A DNA stretch of 10,084 bases. It comes from Candidatus Micrarchaeia archaeon. GTDB taxonomy: Archaea; Micrarchaeota; Micrarchaeia; Anstonellales; J096. The notes under the pieces were generated by a model. The model made no database searches and was not told where the DNA came from. It worked only from the letters and a program-made list of their open reading frames with translations. The stretch covers positions 1 to 10,084 of the forward strand of contig JBGQMB010000032.1 of assembly GCA_041500405.1 (NCBI GenBank), in the 5' to 3' direction. The position numbers and the translations under genes are program-made. This document shows positions 1,127 through 9,462 of the stretch, one piece after another; the first letter of the stretch is position 1, and every line of letters begins with the position of its first letter.

Positions 1127-2095
1127 CTATCTTATCAGCTTTGTCCCGCAGATGCTGTCTTCCTCAAGGTACATTGAAATGAACAGCTTGTAATATCCGA
1201 GGTACGGAATCTTGAATACAATCCTTCCCTTGGCCTGGTTCGGGCTGACAGGCGAATTGAACATGCCTATTGAGTCCAGATAGAACTGGATGTCAAACAC
1301 GTTGTTGTTGTCCCCTTTTGTAAGGATATAAGTCTCGTTTCCGGCATTTATCTTAACGACAGCCCTGTGCACTATGTCCCCGTAAAGCGAGAAAAGGTCT
1401 GTTTTCTTTGGCGCGTAAATGATGGTGTCGCTTGACCTGTCTGCCTGGACATTGACAGTCTGGTTCCTGTATGAAAGGGAAACGACGCACGGCTCTGCGG
1501 AAAGCACATCGGAGCTTGACGTGCTTGCCCTGTAGCACCTGCCGTAATTGAAAATAAACTCCCCCCTGCGCTCTGAAAACAGCGCCGGATTGCTGTAGAA
1601 AAGATTGCACGTTTCATTGTCATCAGCGTTCATACAATGGCTGTAAATGGAGCCGTTCACTTCCATCGTTTCATTTCCAAAATAAACAGTGGGGTTGCGG
1701 AACAAGGCCTGCGCGCCGGAATAGCTTGCAGCTATTTTATTTCCCGTGTAGCTTTGCTCGCCCTTGACTATTATCATGTCCCCCCTGCTCAGGTCAGGAA
1801 CCATGGAACAGGAGACAACCGCGCTTATGGGCGTCGGCGTTGAAAGCGCGAACTGCAGCGCAAACCAGGCAACAATCGCAACCACAACAGTGGCAGCAAT
1901 GTCCTTCAGCTCCGCCTTCCAGCCATTCTTCCTGATGCCCTCCGAAAGCTCGACCAAAACCATCAAAACAATGGCAACCGCGGTAAGGAACCCGAAGATT
2001 GCGCTCTTTGTGAGCAGATAAAGCAGAAGCAGGAAGGCGGCAAGGCCAACCTGAAAATAGGAGTTCTGCAGAAGCGCAACCAGTTTTTGATCCAT
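1127..2095 (-). CDS. Archaeal/ER-type signal peptidase I (S26, Ser-His) with extra N-terminal TM helices and a large insertion
   Basis: PISAVVSCSMVP (catalytic Ser box), RGDMIIVKG, DIVHR (His), TKGDNN and GRIVFKIPYLG are present. There are three N-terminal hydrophobic segments. The ATG is 1 nt after the rpoL stop, and the stop abuts the tsaC stop. Confidence 0.88.
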   Translation of the reverse strand: MDQKLVALLQNSYFQVGLAAFLLLLYLLTKSAIFGFLTAVAIVLMVLVELSEGIRKNGWKAELKDIAATVVVAIVAWFALQFALSTPTPISAVVSCSMVPDLSRGDMIIVKGEQSYTGNKIAASYSGAQALFRNPTVYFGNETMEVNGSIYSHCMNADDNETCNLFYSNPALFSERRGEFIFNYGRCYRASTSSSDVLSAEPCVVSLSYRNQTVNVQADRSSDTIIYAPKKTDLFSLYGDIVHRAVVKINAGNETYILTKGDNNNVFDIQFYLDSIGMFNSPVSPNQAKGRIVFKIPYLGYYKLFISMYLEEDSICGTKLIR

Positions 2096-2438: not shown

Positions 2439-3692
2439 GTGAAGAAGCTAATCATCGTTATAGACATCGATGACGACCTCGGCAAGAAGGCCAAAATTGC
2501 CGGTCCGGTCATAGGCAGGGAGGAGAATCTCTCCGCCGCAATCAGCCTTGCCATAGCGGATCCGGAGGACCCGGACGCGAACGTGATATTCAAGGCAATC
2601 TCCGTCTATGACAGGATGAAGAAAGAGAACGAGGACGTTGAGATAGTCTCCCTTACCGGAGACCAGAAACTGGGAATAACGGCAACATCCAAGATATCCA
2701 GGCAGCTGGACAGGGTCCTTGCGGACATTCCGGCGACATCCTGCTTCCTTATAACAGACGGGGCAAGCGACGAGAGCGTTTTGCCTGTCATTCAGAGCAG
2801 GCTGAAGGTGGACGGCATCCACAATATCTACATCAAGCAGGCCAGGGAGCTTGAAAAGACCTATTTTGTCATCATTGAGAAGCTCAGGGACCCGACGTAC
2901 GCCAAGATACTGCTTGGGGGGCCGGCTATCATCCTTCTTGCGATATCGCTTATGTACCTCCTGTCCCTGCCATGGCAGCTGATGGGCCTTTTGCTTGGCG
3001 TCATCCTTTTGGTTTACGGCTTCGGGCTTAACCATTATGCGGAAAGGATAAAGCACGCAATTGAGATAAAGAAGAACCGTTCGCTAAACTACGCGGTGTG
3101 GATAATCCTGTTCATGCTCACTGCGATAGGCGCAATGACGGTAAGCGCTGCATTCACGCAGGCGCAGGGCCTTGGATACACGGGCATAGAGGTCTGGGCA
3201 TATGCCGCCGACGTCACATTGAACATCCTGCTGTTCATGGCGCTGATTCTCGCATTTGCGAAGTTCGTTGACTCGTATTTCAAGAAGAGCGGCATAAATC
3301 AGATTGCGGCAATCAGCATGACCGTAAGGGGGCTTACGCTTTTCCTTATAGCGAAGATTTGCGCGCAATGGATAATGAACAGCCCGTCCGGGCTGCTCAG
3401 CCTCCAGTACGTTTCATTCGGCACGTTCCTTGAGACGAGCCTTGCGATAGCGGTTGCGTCCTATATAATAGCAAAGTACCTTGACAACATAAAGGCGGAC
3501 CTGCTCATGACGTCCATAGAAGGCGGGGCAAACGTGATGTCGGAGGACGGGAGCATGATAGGCGCGAGCGTGGGAGTGGACCCCAAGGAGCAGACCATGA
3601 TAGTCAAGACCCAGCTCAACAGGATAACGAAGATACCGATAGACAAGGTCCTTTCGATTTCGCCGAACAACGACATAATAGTTGAGGAATGA
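2439..3692 (+). CDS. DUF373-family archaeal membrane protein (417 aa) with a C-terminal PRC-barrel-like extension
   Basis: GTG start gives MKKLIIVIDIDDDLGKKA..GPVIGREEN...DPEDPDAN, then LITDGASDESVLPVIQSR and IKQARELEKTY, which are typical DUF373 motifs. About 6 TM segments follow. The ORF-track start at 2184 overlaps rpoL and was rejected. Confidence 0.85.
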   Translation: MKKLIIVIDIDDDLGKKAKIAGPVIGREENLSAAISLAIADPEDPDANVIFKAISVYDRMKKENEDVEIVSLTGDQKLGITATSKISRQLDRVLADIPATSCFLITDGASDESVLPVIQSRLKVDGIHNIYIKQARELEKTYFVIIEKLRDPTYAKILLGGPAIILLAISLMYLLSLPWQLMGLLLGVILLVYGFGLNHYAERIKHAIEIKKNRSLNYAVWIILFMLTAIGAMTVSAAFTQAQGLGYTGIEVWAYAADVTLNILLFMALILAFAKFVDSYFKKSGINQIAAISMTVRGLTLFLIAKICAQWIMNSPSGLLSLQYVSFGTFLETSLAIAVASYIIAKYLDNIKADLLMTSIEGGANVMSEDGSMIGASVGVDPKEQTMIVKTQLNRITKIPIDKVLSISPNNDIIVEE

Positions 3693-3697
3693 CCCTT

Positions 3698-3744
3698 TGG
3701 GCTTTTTCAAAAAAAGCCCAGCTGAAACTTTTTCAAAAAGCTTC
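3698..3744. repeat. Two adjacent palindromes sharing a CTTTTTCAAAAA core (possible terminator, operator or REP/MITE-like remnant)
   Basis: TGGGCTTTTT-CAA-AAAAAGCCCA (3698-3720) is a perfect 10-bp stem. GAAACTTTTT-C-AAAAAGCTTC (3724-3744) has 9/10 pairs. The core repeats at 3702-3713 and 3728-3739. Confidence 0.7.
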
Positions 3745-3786
3745 TGGTTCAACGAAAAGAAAACTATGGATGGCGCTGTGGCGCTA

Positions 3787-3816: not shown

Positions 3817-4389
3817 ATGCAGGAAAGGAAGGGCTTGCTCAGGCGCACACTTGAGAAGATGCGCATAATAAAACGCATCAAGGAGCCTGCGCCAAGCGAA
3901 AAACCGCATATTTCCGAAGAAGAGCAGAAAAGGCTCAACAACGAACTGCTGGAAGCCGCAGAGAATGGCTACAACGAAGAAATAAGCCGGCTGCTCAAAA
4001 AAGGCGCAAACCTCGAGGCAAAGAACAGCGACGGCTGGACTGCGCTCATGCATGCCGCAGCGTACGGACACGCCCCAGCCTGCGCCTTATTGCTTGAAAA
4101 AGGCGCAAACATAGAGGCAAAGGACAAAGACGGCTGGACCGCGCTCATGTTTGCCGCATACTGCGGACGCACCCCAACCTGCGCTTTGCTGATTGAAAAA
4201 GGCGCAGATGTGAACGCGAAGATTGAAAAAGGAGATTATAAAGGCAAGACCGCGTCCTCAATCGCCGAAGCAAACGACAAAAGGGAAACGGCCGCATTCC
4301 TCAAGTCCATTAAAATATTGCAGGGCTGGATTGGCAATAACGGGATGCAGGATTTCCTTGCTGATTTTAGGGCATGCCTAGGAAAATAG
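3817..4389 (+). CDS. Ankyrin repeat protein (about 4 repeats, 190 aa) with a basic N-terminal leader
   Basis: GWTALMHAA..G....ALLLEKGANIEAKD 33-aa repeats. The protein ends FLADFRACLGK. Confidence 0.93.
   Translation: MQERKGLLRRTLEKMRIIKRIKEPAPSEKPHISEEEQKRLNNELLEAAENGYNEEISRLLKKGANLEAKNSDGWTALMHAAAYGHAPACALLLEKGANIEAKDKDGWTALMFAAYCGRTPTCALLIEKGADVNAKIEKGDYKGKTASSIAEANDKRETAAFLKSIKILQGWIGNNGMQDFLADFRACLGK
4000..4197 (+). repeat. Two tandem 99-bp ankyrin-coding repeats
   Basis: 4000-4098 and 4099-4197 are 80/99 nt identical by manual codon alignment. Confidence 0.85.
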
Positions 4390-4423: not shown

Positions 4424-5041
4424 ATGGCGCAGCTAAAGGGAATGGCACCAAGGAATATGCCCAGCGCAAAGCTGTCCCACAAGCCAGAAGGCAACGTTCC
4501 AAAAAGGCCCACCGAGGAGTCGCAGACTGAGCTCAACCTCAGATTGCTGGGCGAGGTCCAGTACGAGCTCAAAAAGGTGAGCCCAAGCCATGGTGATTTA
4601 TTTGACTATATCACCGATCTTGCAATCGTCGACTTGAAGAACTTTGCCGCAATGGCGCGCATAAGGCTGCTGCTGAAAAAGGGCGCGGACGTCAATGCAA
4701 AAGACGGGAACCGCAGGACGCCGCTCATGCATGCGGCTCAGGGGGGCCATGATGCATTGTGCAGGCTGCTGATCAAGAAAGGCGCAGACATAGACGCAAG
4801 GGACGACGGCAACGAGACTGCGCTGATGAAGGCCGCGATGTGCGGCCACTCGAAAATCTGTGCCCTGCTGATAAGGAGCGGCGCAAGCATGGGCTTTGTG
4901 AACAGCCTCGGCAACAGCGCATTGAAGCTCGCAATGCTGAATAACCGTTCCAAGGTCGTGAAAGTGATGCTAAAGGCGGTTTTTGGGAATAAGATAGGCA
5001 GCGCATTGCTGTACAATTTGAAAAAATGCATCTCACTTTGA
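4424..5041 (+). CDS. Ankyrin repeat protein (205 aa) with an insertion in the first repeat
   Basis: Contains LLLKKGADVNAKD..RTPLMHAA.GGH...LLIKKGADIDARD..ETALMKAA..GH...LLIRSGA. The protein ends LLYNLKKCISL and overlaps the convergent downstream gene by 9 nt. Confidence 0.92.
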   Translation: MAQLKGMAPRNMPSAKLSHKPEGNVPKRPTEESQTELNLRLLGEVQYELKKVSPSHGDLFDYITDLAIVDLKNFAAMARIRLLLKKGADVNAKDGNRRTPLMHAAQGGHDALCRLLIKKGADIDARDDGNETALMKAAMCGHSKICALLIRSGASMGFVNSLGNSALKLAMLNNRSKVVKVMLKAVFGNKIGSALLYNLKKCISL

Positions 5042-5641: not shown

Positions 5642-5657
5642 GCAAAAGGTTTAAATT
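5642..5657. promoter_or_regulatory. BRE-TATA (GCAAAAGG-TTTAAA), probably bidirectional
   Basis: The TTTAAA palindrome at 5650-5655 lies exactly 29 nt from both divergent ATGs (5626 on -, 5679 on +). Confidence 0.7.
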
Positions 5658-5678: not shown

Positions 5679-6170
5679 ATGGAAACAAAACACGTCGGGT
5701 ATCTGCTGATAGTGGTAGCCTTGCTGATAGGGTTCATAACGTTCATATTCAACAGCGCGCTTACAGAGATAGTCAGCACATCCTGTTCGCACGGGCCCAC
5801 TTGCCCGATGTGGGGAACCATAGACGCGCAGACGATGGTTGCGCTCGGAATAACCGCATTCATACTCCTTGTCGGGGTTTATCTTGCCTTTTTCTTCAAG
5901 GCAGGCGCAGCCGTGCCCATGCAGAAGCCGACAAAGGAGCAGTTTGCAGGCGCCATGAAGCTGCTTTCGCAGGACGAGAGGGCGATAGTGGAGAAGCTTA
6001 TAGAGCACGAGGGCGCGATGTTCCAGTCTGATTTGGTTGATAAGACAGGCATGCAGAAGGTCAAGGTCACAAGGCTCTTGGACAGGCTTGAAGGGTTGAA
6101 GCTCATAGAGCGCAAGAGAAGGGGCATGACCAACGTTGTAATCCTAAAGGCGCCCCAGCACAAGGCCTGA
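5679..6170 (+). CDS. Membrane-anchored winged-HTH protein (2 TM + MarR-like/COG2512-like HTH), putative metal-responsive regulator
   Basis: TM segments at about aa 6-24 and 54-73 flank the loop CSHGPTCPM. The C-terminal LSQDERAIVEKL..HEG.MFQSDLVDKTGMQKVKVTRLLDRLEGLKLIERKRRGMTNVV fits a wHTH fold. Confidence 0.82.
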   Translation: METKHVGYLLIVVALLIGFITFIFNSALTEIVSTSCSHGPTCPMWGTIDAQTMVALGITAFILLVGVYLAFFFKAGAAVPMQKPTKEQFAGAMKLLSQDERAIVEKLIEHEGAMFQSDLVDKTGMQKVKVTRLLDRLEGLKLIERKRRGMTNVVILKAPQHKA

Positions 6171-6250
6171 AACCAGTTTGGCACAAATCCTTATATGCAG
6201 TTTCGCCTGTGAAACCAGTTTCATACAATATTTAATATGCCGTTTCAGCC
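6168..6250 (+). promoter_or_regulatory. Tandem 42-bp-period operator+TATA modules with a TGAAAC-N2-GTTTCA palindrome
   Basis: TGAAACCAGTTT occurs at 6168 and 6210, and the second copy is a perfect palindrome (6210-6223). Each is followed by ACAA, a TATA-like stretch, ATATGC and a GTTTC half-site. The units are 28/37 identical. Confidence 0.75.
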
Positions 6251-6261
6251 GCAAGCAAGGC

Positions 6262-6960
6262 ATGGAACAAAAAAACGGGTGCTGCGAAACAGGGAAGGAT
6301 AGCGGCCTTGGGAAAGGCAGTGAAGGAAAGAAACCAAATGGCCTGCTTGAAGGCGTAATATACGGCTTGATTCCGCATATGGGATGCATTGCGTTCATAT
6401 TGCTTGCGATATTGGGCGCAACGACAATGAGCGCACTGTTCCAGCCGCTGCTTATGAACAGGAACCTCTTTTATGGGCTGATACTGCTGTCGTTCGCATT
6501 TGCAACGCTTTCGGCAATCATCTACCTAAACAAGAGGGGACTGCTTTCAGCCCAAGGGATAGCAAAGGCCAAGGGATACCTGTCAGTGTTGTACGGAACC
6601 ACAATCGGGGTCAATCTCCTGTTTTTCTTTGTGGTATTCCCGATATTGGCGAATGCGGTGCCGAGCGGACAGCTCAACCAGGCCATCAGCGCCGATGTGT
6701 GCCCGCTGAACTCAACGTCGGAATGCAGCCAGACAGCGCAACTGAGCACATTGGTCATCAAGGTCGACATCCCCTGTTCCGGCCATGCGCCTTTGATAAC
6801 AACGGAGCTATACAAGCTGAGTGGCGTAAGGAACGTGAAATTCACCCCCACGAACCAGTTCACGGTGTCATATGACCCGTCGGTAACCACCAAGGACGGC
6901 ATACTAAGCCTCGGGATATTTAAGACTTATCCCGCAAAAGACATCGGGGGGCAACAATGA
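6262..6960 (+). CDS. 3-TM membrane protein with a C-terminal HMA-like domain (MerT/MerP-fusion-like, 232 aa)
   Basis: N-terminal CC, PHMGC in TM1, three TM segments, then a ferredoxin-like HMA pattern (LVIKVDIPCSGHAPLI..EL.KLSGV.NV...FTVSYDP). ATG 6262 is 31 nt after TTTAATAT (6231). Confidence 0.72.
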   Translation: MEQKNGCCETGKDSGLGKGSEGKKPNGLLEGVIYGLIPHMGCIAFILLAILGATTMSALFQPLLMNRNLFYGLILLSFAFATLSAIIYLNKRGLLSAQGIAKAKGYLSVLYGTTIGVNLLFFFVVFPILANAVPSGQLNQAISADVCPLNSTSECSQTAQLSTLVIKVDIPCSGHAPLITTELYKLSGVRNVKFTPTNQFTVSYDPSVTTKDGILSLGIFKTYPAKDIGGQQ

Positions 6961-7175
6961 AAAAGGCAAGATTATTTATAACGGGGATGGACTGCACAGC
7001 ATGCGCGACGGCCATCGAAAACGCAGTTGGAAAGCAGAAGGGCATTGTTTCCATTGGCGTGAATTCCGTAACCGGCAGGGCCGTTGTAGAGCTTGACGAA
7101 ACGAAAATCCAAATCAAGGACATAATAAAGATAATAAAGGGCCTTGGCTACAAGGCATCCGAGGCGGCAACGTGA
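6957..7175 (+). CDS. copZ: Stand-alone HMA metallochaperone (CopZ-like)
   Basis: 72 aa with GMDCTAC and a terminal LGY loop. ATGA overlap with the upstream gene and a G-rich SD-like site. Confidence 0.88.
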   Translation: MKKARLFITGMDCTACATAIENAVGKQKGIVSIGVNSVTGRAVVELDETKIQIKDIIKIIKGLGYKASEAAT

Positions 7176-7180
7176 TGGCA

Positions 7181-7214
7181 CATATAATGATATTTAGGAT
7201 TTATCCTAAAATAT
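7181..7214 (+). promoter_or_regulatory. Putative internal copA promoter with a palindromic operator
   Basis: ATATAA (7182-7187) is followed by the perfect inverted repeat TTTAGGAT-TT-ATCCTAAA (7193-7210). An SD-like GGTGGGGGAG precedes ATG 7231. Confidence 0.6.
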
Positions 7215-7230
7215 ACGGTGGGGGAGCACA

Positions 7231-9462
7231 ATGAAAACATCAAGGTTACTTATATCCGGCATGCACTGCGCCTCATGCGCAAGCAACATCCAGTCGTCCC
7301 TTGAGAGGGAAGAAGGAATGAAGTCGTTCAAGATAAGCTTCACTGAGGGAAAGGCCCTGGCGGAGTTTGACGAAAAGAGCATAACGGAAGAGGAGATAAT
7401 GAAAAAGGTCGAGGACCTCGGCTACTGGGCCACGGCGGAAGAGGAAATCCTGGAAAAGGAAAAGGAGCAGAAGGCAAAGGAAACCAAGAAAATAGGCGAC
7501 ATGTTCCTTTTGTCATTGCTTTTCTCGCTTCCTGCATTCATAATCGCAATGCCTTTGGCATGGATGGGAATGGAGATTCCCTATGCCCCATACGTCCTTT
7601 TCGCGCTTGCAACGCCCGTGCAATTCGTCGCCGGATTCAGGTTCTACAGGGGCGCGTTCTATGCGCTGAAATCTTTAAGCGCCAACATGGACACGCTCAT
7701 AGCGGTTGGAACGTCGGCCGCCTATTTCTACAGCGCCGCAGTCCTTCTTCTGGGAATGGAGCTGTCCAGCAACATCTATTTTGAGACGTCATCGCTTATC
7801 ATAACAATAGTGCTGTTCGGCAACTGGCTTGAAGCCGTTGCAAAGGGAAAGGCGTCAGAGGCGATAACAAAGCTGGCCCAGCTCCGGCCGGCAATGGCAA
7901 TAGTGAAAAGGAACGGCAAGGACGAGGAGATGCCGGCTGAAAAAATCAAGGCCAGGGACATTGTGATTGTCAAGCCAGGGCAGAAAATACCCGTGGACGG
8001 CATTGTCACGGAGGGCCTTTCCTATGTTGACGAGTCCATGGTCACCGGCGAAAGCATGCCTGTCAGAAAAGTGGAGGGAAGCGCAGTCATAGGCGGCACC
8101 TTGAACGGGTCCGGCTATATCGAGTTCGAGGCGACAAAGGTCGGCAAGGACACTATATTAAACCAGATAATACGGCTGGTCGAGGACGCGCAGACCAGCA
8201 AGGCGCCGATACAAAGGCTTGCGGACAAGGTCAGCGGAATATTTGCAATTGCTGTCATTGCGATTGCGGTAATCGCGTTCTGCGTCTGGCATTATGTATT
8301 GGGCCAGAGCTTTGCGTTTTCAATCGGCATATTCGTCGCAATCCTGGTGATTGCGTGCCCGTGCGCGCTGGGCCTTGCAACGCCTACCGCAATACTTGTC
8401 GGAAGCGGAGTGGGCGCAAGGGACGGCATACTGTTCAAGAGCGCAAGGGCGCTGGAGAACGCGCACAAGGTGACAACCGTTGTTTTCGACAAGACAGGGA
8501 CGCTTACGACCGGCAGGATAGTGGTAACTGACATAGTGCCGCTTGACAAGAAGCTTTCAAGCAAGGACGTGCTTGACCTTGCCGCAATCGCGGAAAGCAA
8601 GTCCGAGCATCCGCTCGCAAAATCAATAATGGAAAGGGCGGCGATGAGCGGCATAACGGTGGAAAAGCCTATGTCATTCGAGTCCATGCCGGGCAAGGGC
8701 ATTGTCGCGGCTTACAAGGGAAAAAACATAACGGCAGGCAGCATTGTGCTGCTGAAGGAGCGCAAAATCGGCTTCACCCAGGACGACGAGAACGCGATAC
8801 TTGCGATAGAAAGGGAGGGCAAGACCGCGATACTTATAGGATATGGAAGGAAGCTCGCAGGCATAGTCGGGGTTGCGGACGAGGTGCGGGACGACGCAAT
8901 AATGGCGGTTTCCGAACTGAAGGCGATGGGCAAGGAAATAACAATGATGACTGGAGACAATGAAAGGGTCGCAAATGCGGTTGCAGCCAAGCTCGGCATA
9001 GGCACGGTCATATCCAGCGTCCTGCCGCAGGAAAAGGAGGCGGAGATAGCAAAGCTCCAGCAGAGCGGCCGCATTGTAGCCATGGTCGGGGACGGCGTCA
9101 ACGACGCGCCCGCATTGGCGAAAGCGGATATCGGCATAGCGATGGGCTCTGCCACCGATGTCGCGCTTGAGGCTGGCGAGATAGTCCTTGTAAGAAACGA
9201 TGTGAAGGACATCGCCGCGGCATTTGACCTTAGCAAATACGTTTTAAGCAAAATAAAGCAGAACCTGTTCTGGGCGTTTTTCTACAACAGCATAGGCATA
9301 CCGATTGCCGCCGGAATCCTTTTCTATCCGCTCGGGTTCCTGCTTAACCCCATGATAGGGGCTGCAACAATGGCATTCAGCTCGCTGTCCGTGGTAACCA
9401 ACGCGCTTCTCATGAGGCGTTATAAAAGAGGAAAGGGCGCCAAGCCCGCTTCCCCAATCTGA
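7231..9462 (+). CDS. copA: Cu(I)-translocating P1B-1 ATPase CopA
   Basis: One N-terminal GMHCASC HMA domain, plus TGES, CPC, DKTGT, SEHP, GDGVND, the TM YN motif (FFYN) and MxxSS (MAFSS). Confidence 0.96.
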   Translation: MKTSRLLISGMHCASCASNIQSSLEREEGMKSFKISFTEGKALAEFDEKSITEEEIMKKVEDLGYWATAEEEILEKEKEQKAKETKKIGDMFLLSLLFSLPAFIIAMPLAWMGMEIPYAPYVLFALATPVQFVAGFRFYRGAFYALKSLSANMDTLIAVGTSAAYFYSAAVLLLGMELSSNIYFETSSLIITIVLFGNWLEAVAKGKASEAITKLAQLRPAMAIVKRNGKDEEMPAEKIKARDIVIVKPGQKIPVDGIVTEGLSYVDESMVTGESMPVRKVEGSAVIGGTLNGSGYIEFEATKVGKDTILNQIIRLVEDAQTSKAPIQRLADKVSGIFAIAVIAIAVIAFCVWHYVLGQSFAFSIGIFVAILVIACPCALGLATPTAILVGSGVGARDGILFKSARALENAHKVTTVVFDKTGTLTTGRIVVTDIVPLDKKLSSKDVLDLAAIAESKSEHPLAKSIMERAAMSGITVEKPMSFESMPGKGIVAAYKGKNITAGSIVLLKERKIGFTQDDENAILAIEREGKTAILIGYGRKLAGIVGVADEVRDDAIMAVSELKAMGKEITMMTGDNERVANAVAAKLGIGTVISSVLPQEKEAEIAKLQQSGRIVAMVGDGVNDAPALAKADIGIAMGSATDVALEAGEIVLVRNDVKDIAAAFDLSKYVLSKIKQNLFWAFFYNSIGIPIAAGILFYPLGFLLNPMIGAATMAFSSLSVVTNALLMRRYKRGKGAKPASPI

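Follow-up and report, generated by a model that had tools for sequence, protein, structure and literature searches.

The window analysed here is a stretch of 10,084 nucleotides from a Candidatus Micrarchaeia archaeon (contig JBGQMB010000032.1). Its closest named relatives are Micrarchaeota/DPANN assemblies, and the source genome (G000; 0.92 Mb) is 86% complete. An earlier note on this DNA had described four co-directional genes as a copper (cop) regulon run by a membrane-anchored sensor, and the four open reading frames (ORFs), 5679-6170, 6262-6960, 6957-7175 and 7231-9462, are located as claimed. They encode a small membrane protein with a winged helix-turn-helix (wHTH) domain of the DUF7343 family, a protein with three transmembrane (TM) helices and an HMA-like domain, a CopZ-like chaperone, and the copper pump CopA. 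From the comparisons given below, the wHTH protein is very probably a dedicated transmembrane one-component regulator of the cop operon. It goes together with a palindromic operator ahead of gene 2, and this widespread regulator-operator pair heading archaeal cop operons is apparently undescribed. The features of the locus are listed here in order.

5650..5657, + strand: TATA-like box TTTAAATT, 29 nt 5' of the regulator ATG (from the sequence)
5679..6170, + strand: gene 1, two-TM/DUF7343 winged-helix regulator, 163 aa (Pfam PF24034, AlphaFold2 model, K/R bias)
5784..5810, + strand: C36-x-H38-x3-C42-x-M44 at the hairpin tip, likely Cu(I) site (homologue alignments)
6168..6204, + strand: upstream degenerate composite copy of the operator, one palindrome mismatch, 42 bp before the main copy (from the sequence; tandem copies in loci L001 and L002)
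6210..6223, no strand: main operator palindrome TGAAACCAGTTTCA (family consensus TGAAACTAGTTTCA), with the conserved GAAAC-N2-GTTTC
6231..6240, + strand: TATA box of the cop promoter (position profile)
6242..6247, + strand: GTTTCA half-site just 3' of the TATA box, 19 nt past the palindrome (conserved spacing)
6262..6960, + strand: gene 2, 3-TM protein, 232 aa, with an N-terminal CC, PHMGC before or in TM1, and a C-terminal HMA-like domain (C172-x2-H175) predicted to lie outside (hydropathy, sub-cut-off matches)
6957..7175, + strand: gene 3, CopZ-like HMA chaperone, 72 aa, CTAC (PF00403, 59.9 bits)
7193..7210, no strand: palindrome TTTAGGATTTATCCTAAA, probably a duplication relic and not a conserved operator (1 of 55 CopA upstream regions)
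7231..9462, + strand: gene 4, CopA, Cu(I)-type P1B ATPase, 743 aa, with CASC, CPC, DKTGT, YN and MAFSS (TIGR01511, motifs)

DUF7343 (PF24034) is the sole Pfam family passed by the regulator, at 42.7 bits against a cut-off of 27.6. The hydropathy profile has two peaks, at residues 6-24 and 54-72. The AlphaFold2 model, built on a 119-row alignment (predicted local distance difference test, pLDDT, 81; predicted template modelling score, pTM, 0.45), shows a long helical hairpin (residues 3-35 and 43-72) with the Cys motif at its turn, followed by a C-terminal winged helix at 98-156. The two hydrophobic helices, the DUF7343 match and the modelled wHTH agree with the two-TM wHTH protein first described. 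The mean number of Lys and Arg residues in 119 homologues is 1.9 N-terminal of TM1, 0.32 in the 25-residue loop and 7.2 after TM2. Because of this bias and the positive-inside rule, the loop is predicted to face outward, which gives a predicted N-in, loop-out, C-in topology, as the earlier note had expected. A homodimer prediction, run without controls, returned a score of 0.01.

The proteins of this family carry the database label MarR, with which they share a winged-helix fold and weak sequence and structure matches. On the other hand, two MarR Pfam models just miss their cut-offs on the regulator (24.2 against 24.6 and 26.5 against 27), the regulator has a membrane hairpin, and the model has no helix past residue 156, so that the C-terminal dimerisation helix of MarR is missing. 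Membership of MarR was rejected on the cut-offs and the missing helix. A sequence search of the PDB with the regulator returned weak MarR/CodY matches only, Foldseek with its model found nothing at E <= 0.001, only weak generic wHTH matches, and every Atlas neighbour is a DUF7343 hypothetical protein. No function is assigned to DUF7343 in Pfam.

C36, H38, C42 and M44 fall between the two hydrophobic peaks, and the Cys/His/Met loop motif is real. A homologue search gave 1192 of 1339 candidates at E <= 0.001, and 119 of the best 120 were aligned, one fragment being excluded. C36, G39, C42 and M44 are invariant in these 119 close homologues, and H38, P43 and W45 are each at least 90% conserved. 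In a more distant set, taken from the best 150 of 2434 profile matches and holding 126 rows of at least 140 aa (query included), the two loop Cys are kept in 123 and 122 rows, and the position of M44 is His in 39 and Met in 38. On these alignments, the core of the wider family is C-x5-C-x-[M/H], with a spacing that varies in distant members.

The alternation of His and Met two residues after the second Cys favours a metal ligand over a disulfide, and so do the C-x5-C-x-H loop of a second cop-linked subfamily (subfamily 2, below) and the H-x3-M of Cys-free relatives. As far as these residues indicate, copper or silver is probably the direct signal of the regulator. A thiol-disulfide switch would use the same Cys pair to read envelope redox, with copper as an indirect oxidant and the operon as a copper-plus-redox stress regulon. 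The two Cys are indeed the best conserved loop residues, genes for DsbA, VKOR, thioredoxin-like proteins, rubrerythrin and DsbD_2 fusions recur nearby, and the operator stands directly before DsbA in L088/L153. Such a switch is nevertheless improbable given the His/Met alternation, the Cys-free relatives with His/Met on the same face beside the same cop operons, and the much smaller number of loci with redox genes than with CopA/HMA genes.

Pattern matches in species-representative genomes number 590, of which 566 encode relatives of the regulator, and 80 loci (80 of at least 566) were analysed. Their neighbourhoods were defined by ORF calling and clustering, with Pfam run on 49 representatives. 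The loci are mostly from Woesearchaeota/Nanoarchaeota, Aenigmarchaeota, Micrarchaeota and Pacearchaeota, with some from Methanofastidiosum and from records labelled Methanosarcinales. Co-location with copA and HMA genes, which the earlier note had proposed as a check, is found: HMA-cluster genes are present at 67 of 80 loci and CopA (within 6 kb) at 53, and the 61 loci with at least 4 kb downstream have HMA genes in 55 cases and CopA in 50. Other neighbours are HMA-DsbD_2-cupredoxin fusions, plastocyanin-like, DUF411 and DUF302 proteins, and more rarely thioredoxin-like proteins, DsbA, VKOR and rubrerythrin. At many loci the HMA-DsbD_2-cupredoxin fusion takes the place of the 3-TM/HMA protein (L022:8280-9680, L006:6772-8226, L026:2112-3824). 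Both proteins would carry metal-binding domains on the two faces of the membrane.

The gap ahead of gene 2 (6168-6250) is made of two direct copies, 42 bp apart and identical at 28 of 38 bases, of one composite: the palindrome TGAAACYRGTTTCA, a TATA box and a GTTTC half-site. Similar tandem composite copies are carried by L001 and L002. The exact core GAAAC-N2-GTTTC has 72 matches in 70 of 81 loci (window included), against 0-3 matches in each of 20 Markov resamplings. The general layout is TGAAACTAGTTTCA, about 9 bases, a TWATAAG box, 2 bases and GTTTCA, and the half-site lies 19 nt 3' of the palindrome in 63 of the 72 exact palindromes. The ATG of gene 2 is at position 52 counted from the palindrome G, an ATG occurs at 52-53 in 35 of 73 sites, and the cop transcript is likely leaderless, with its start about 29 nt from the TATA box. 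The cop genes are headed by the operator even where 0.3-1.7 kb of other genes lie in between. The earlier note had seen operators in both non-overlapping intergenic gaps of the cluster; this holds for the first gap, whose palindrome recurs in 70 of 81 loci, and not for the second, whose palindrome stands upstream of CopA in 1 of 55. Within the window no palindrome was found upstream of the regulator gene, whose promoter at 5650..5657 is likely constitutive and leaderless.

Some exact sites stand elsewhere. At L153:2065-2862 the operator is directly before DsbA, and at L079:6485-8044 it precedes a 79-aa gene, an ArsR-like gene and a DNA alkylation repair gene. The palindrome at L156:2611 (G001) falls within a gene for an RNA polymerase subunit and is probably a chance match. 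At L150:3439-4675, a CP-H-type regulator is directly 5' of a CobW/COG0523 GTPase, and the exact operator was not found in the fetched DNA.

A survey of the phylum covered 251 genomes, with the regulator subfamily (E < 1e-20) in 28, CopA in 152 and the exact composite in 16. The exact composite occurs in 16 of the 28 regulator genomes and in none of the 126 CopA genomes without the regulator subfamily (0/126). The 16 composite genomes are spread over 7 families, most members of which have neither regulator nor composite, and related genomes among them are not independent. The exact core palindrome is near the regulator gene in 24 of 28 genomes. Composites with one mismatch occur in 8 genomes outside the regulator genomes and are attributed to chance, because a reversed control pattern matched 11 genomes.

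The link between regulator and site comes from sequence comparison and the genome is 86% complete, which leaves some room for a regulator gene that is a mere passenger while another copper regulator binds the palindrome. We consider this very improbable: the exact composite is absent from the CopA genomes without the regulator subfamily, changes in the HTH go with changes in the site, which also accompanies the HTH at loci without cop genes, and known copper regulators were not found in G000. Family searches of that genome, at its 86% completeness, gave no match to TRASH (PF08394), CsoR, MerR or DtxR (PF01325). CopY/BlaI had a single match below cut-off, on a 343-aa frame. The absence of known copper regulators first remarked on for the window thus extends to the genome for TRASH, CsoR and MerR, and for CopY above cut-off; no search for kinases was made.

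Divergent relatives provide a second comparison. A further 20 CopA loci were taken, 13 picked for a weak regulator match near CopA and 7 on CopA alone, and 5 of these 7 also encode a two-TM wHTH protein. Two very divergent loci, L171 and L177, were excluded from the site analysis. Subfamily 2 (11 loci, L152 included) is cop-linked and has a K[AS]HR recognition helix and a different wing. Its loop is C-x5-C-x-H in 10 of 10 aligned proteins, and its GTTTC-type half-sites are at 21+22 bp in 11 of 11 loci. The palindrome there is GAAAC-N4-GTTNC (N = T, A or G) in 7 of 11 loci, compared with the N2 spacer in 69 of 80 loci of the window subfamily. Another six cop-linked relatives are Cys-free; they carry H-x3-M where TM2 begins on the outer side, and their sites include a pair of half-sites at 22 bp. 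Both additional cop-linked subfamilies (L152, L160-L170, L172-L176) are mostly divergent from the operon. A tree of the HTH only (41 rows, 67 columns) was mostly unresolved, with unsettled bootstrap values.

Some relatives have other neighbours. The variant in L143-L146 is Cys-free and longer in its membrane part; its HTH is the same, and the same site stands before heme-synthesis and HxlR genes. These loci (L143:4140-6490, L144:310-5683, L145:4248-5952, L146:816-3691) come from three genomes of one Micrarchaeota genus, and the neighbours include hemA, hemB, hemE, ferrochelatase, an ABM protein, HxlR and cytochrome b. This variant is possibly a membrane sensor of heme or respiration. Another Cys-free variant, with DGHMM[M/V] in the first loop and an exact composite operator, is found at L141:41-3834 and L142:3896-6123; downstream in L141 are a YHS protein and small membrane proteins of no assigned function, and CopA was not found in that genome. 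DUF7343 relatives on haloarchaeal plasmids have two hydrophobic stretches and no Cys loop. Of 18 records found, 4 were inspected, and 3 of these have GAAACGCGTTTC next to the relative, with no annotated copper genes. Three records (L180:4564-5207, L181:3890-5213 and L182:3890-5189; H. mediterranei HFX_RS18645, H. hispanica and H. mukohataei) have secreted or anchored proteins of no assigned function next to the relative and GAAACGCGTTTC.

Because the spacing co-varies with the recognition helix, and because Cys-free heme-linked and haloarchaeal relatives keep the palindrome, these comparisons indicate that the site belongs to the winged helix, not to copA, and that the loop is the variable sensor. 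A different use of the membrane part is conceivable, as an anchor or docking surface, with the signal coming from a partner such as the 3-TM/HMA protein (by CadC/LysP or ToxR/ToxS logic) or from proteolytic release, and with the Cys pair structural. This would suit the HMA-bearing membrane protein that is 3' of the regulator in most loci (cluster c1, 56 of 81) and the Cys-free relatives that share HTH and operator. The downstream membrane protein, on the other hand, varies (3-TM/HMA, HMA-DsbD_2-cupredoxin, cupredoxin, DUF411) as the loop stays constant, and it is itself under the operator. A signal from a partner is, in our estimate, slightly less probable than the already improbable redox switch.

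Our overall reading is that a Cu(I)-sensing transmembrane regulator binds the operator from the membrane and switches on copper export, to which we assign a probability of roughly 60%. The regulator would be made constitutively from its own operator-free promoter. Its dimer, presumably formed via the TM hairpins, would sit on TGAAACYRGTTTCA, which ends 10 bp 5' of the sub-optimal TATA box, and would make another contact past that box, at the GTTTC half-site; co-occurrence and co-variation suggest this binding. Cu(I) on C36, C42 and M44, with H38 as a local extra ligand, would then move the helices and let TBP and TFB engage, and one leaderless transcript would yield the 3-TM/HMA protein, CopZ and CopA.

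Several observations weigh against this reading. Two peptide patterns of the regulator subfamily served to select the 80 loci, and related loci among them are not independent. HMA genes are missing at 13 of the 80, 6 of these having less than 2 kb downstream, and thioredoxin-like, DsbA and VKOR genes are present at 7, 3 and 3 loci. The exact operator also stands before non-copper genes, namely DsbA (L088/L153), the L079 genes and heme-synthesis genes (L143, L146). Of the 28 regulator genomes, 4 have no exact palindrome in the nearby fetched DNA (one at a contig end, one with a single mismatch). In the loop, the Cys pair stands up to the conservation check of the earlier note and H38 as a family-wide ligand does not, being kept in about 29 of the 126 distant rows (a lower bound, since the column is gappy). 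Neither His nor Met follows the second Cys in 49 of these rows. The H-x3-M argument is also weakened, Met being common in membrane helices.

As for the direction of control, the odds that the regulator activates appear somewhat better than even, and de-repression is put at a little under even. Activation is favoured because the regulator is outside the controlled unit in nearly all co-directional loci, because the site is upstream of the B recognition element (BRE) and TATA box, as for Pyrococcus CopR, and because the cop composites have weaker TATA boxes. A perfect match to a TATA consensus is found in 6 of 73 composites and 23 of 80 regulator promoters. Pyrococcus CopR binds directly 5' of the BRE, and the activators Ptr2 and BarR contact DNA below the TATA box (PMC7830388).

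The same site and signal could also serve a repressor, in which two dimers on palindrome and half-site enclose the TATA box and are released by Cu(I). Such an arrangement would suit a half-site that hardly varies and lies right against the TATA box, but in no case does the full palindrome extend over the cop TATA box or start site. Two paralogues, those of L034 and L041, are under their own operator; they are the only 2 co-directional regulators in 81 loci with an operator upstream of their own gene, and the position of the regulator outside the controlled unit in nearly all other co-directional loci argues the other way. The palindrome lies over the likely start of the regulator itself in 6 divergent loci, yet autorepression from a divergent promoter is also shown by CopR as an activator (PMC7830388). 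CopR itself is an activator in Pyrococcus, Saccharolobus and Halobacterium and a reported repressor in Thermococcus onnurineus (PMC7830388). We regard a repressor of this kind as unlikely, although it is the most probable of the four alternatives weighed here.

The three genes under the putative operator were assigned with different confidence. Gene 2, called MerTP-like by the earlier note, has a weak and distant resemblance to MerTP (NF033556; 15.2 bits, E=0.012), far below the equivalog cut-off of 180, and that label was dropped. Its HMA match (E=0.018) is below cut-off, and its single-sequence model is of low confidence (pLDDT 52). The CopZ-like and CopA assignments were both borne out, the first by PF00403 and the second by TIGR01511 (594.5 bits against a cut-off of 397) and the P1B motifs, with CPC, YN, MxxSS and an N-terminal CxxC present. 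The motifs listed for CopA above are those of Cu(I) pumps.

The palindrome at 7193-7210 is upstream of CopA at 1 of 55 loci, that of the window, and is missing from the same-genus locus L001. Perfect palindromes of this size number 170 in the genome. The gap that holds it (7176-7230) aligns with the last codons of gene 2 at 29 of 45 bases (23 for the next best place in the window), the start of copZ aligns with the start of copA at 43 of 60 bases, and L002 has no copZ, with gene 2 joined directly to copA. It is likely that copZ arose by tandem duplication of the 3' end of gene 2 together with the N-terminal HMA domain of CopA (window 6896-7290), and the simplest reading of the palindrome is a chance feature in the relic left by that duplication. 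Being unconserved and placed in a decayed copy of the gene 2 3' end, it was rejected as an operator. To our eye it resembles a DtxR box; this assignment was also rejected, on its presence at 1 of 55 loci and on the lack of a PF01325 match in G000 at 86% completeness.

The flanks of the cop locus encode, according to Pfam, Sua5, an RNA polymerase L-type subunit, DUF373, two ankyrin proteins, a CDP-alcohol phosphatidyltransferase and an ABC-2 permease, and are housekeeping or unrelated genes. The two ankyrin-repeat genes are in tandem (window 3817-4389 and 4424-5041), each with a TTTTTAAAC box before it, and L001 has five similar genes. Between the DUF373 gene and the first ankyrin gene, window 3692-3760 is rich in A/T runs, with repeated CTTTTTCAAAAA(A)AG words, and similar A/T runs are seen upstream of regulators at other loci. 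Adjoining the RNA polymerase L-type gene, window 1127-2095 (- strand) encodes a 322-aa membrane protein that looks like a split signal peptidase, with a weak Peptidase_S24 match (E=0.04).

Archaeal CopR/CopT (Pyrococcus PF0739, Saccharolobus SSO2652, Thermococcus TON_0836) share with the window the layout of regulator, chaperone and CopA, as well as a (semi-)palindromic site just 5' of BRE/TATA and a divergent or tandem arrangement (PMC7830388). The cop cluster with CopA and a chaperone, used to recognise CopR/CopT, is present in the window locus. In CopR the HTH is N-terminal, the sensor is a TRASH domain and the motif is TTNNCAWWWTGNNAA (PMC7830388), whereas the window regulator has no TRASH domain, a C-terminal wHTH, two membrane helices, a sensor predicted to be outside, and the site TGAAACYRGTTTCA. 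It was rejected as a CopR/CopT protein since PF08394 is missing from both protein and genome.

ToxR and CadC have an N-terminal OmpR-type wHTH, one TM helix and a large periplasmic domain. The comparison with them made in the earlier note survives as shared logic and fails as architecture, the regulator having a C-terminal DUF7343 wHTH, two TM helices, a 25-residue loop and no periplasmic domain, and the ToxR/CadC type was rejected for it. Among archaeal motility and pilin regulators, ArnR is presumably transmembrane as well. Transmembrane transcription regulators (TTRs; ToxR, TcpP, CadC) are defined by a DNA-binding domain and a TM region in one chain (PMC10269533), and the regulator has both as predicted features. 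In the main text of that survey the words "copper" and "metal" occur 0 times; its supplements may list the family among predicted TTRs.

CsoR, CueR, CopY and CusRS/CopRS resemble the window's system in the control of copA/copZ and in their Cys/His/Met ligands. The one-component sensors CsoR, CueR and CopY are cytoplasmic, and the bacterial two-component systems CusRS/CopRS sense copper outside the cytoplasm and need a kinase and a response regulator. To our knowledge, copper-sensing transcription factors read the cytoplasm, and sensing outside takes two proteins. No contrary case was found in the literature searched, and the accessible part of PMC11672702, included in that search, has no membrane-anchored one-component metal sensor. 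Neither is the regulator family described in the accessible parts of PMC10694973 and PMC9239133. In the literature searched, which lacks most subscription papers, the regulator family and its operator are undescribed, the term DUF7343 does not occur, no paper gives the family another role, and no papers on copper regulons of Woesearchaeota/Micrarchaeota were found.

There is an even chance, in our view, that the regulator is the first membrane-embedded one-component metal sensor, with Cu(I) bound outside and the basal archaeal transcription machinery controlled at a TATA box straight through the membrane, and one branch of a pan-archaeal DUF7343 family with a shared GAAAC/GTTTC half-site and swapped sensors. 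Copper would be read by C-x5-C-x-M/H or H-x3-M, and different loops would serve heme synthesis and haloarchaeal envelope genes. If so, this 163-residue protein would be a minimal trans-membrane metal switch that joins sensing and DNA control, useful for studies of how signals cross membranes and as a biosensor part. DUF7343 would gain a function and a DNA site, and DPANN archaea would gain a predicted regulon, for which species-representative genomes hold at least 566 matching stretches. The operator is defined base by base, and two cultured species, Haloferax mediterranei and Haloarcula hispanica, have relatives that share the palindrome and would offer a tractable system.

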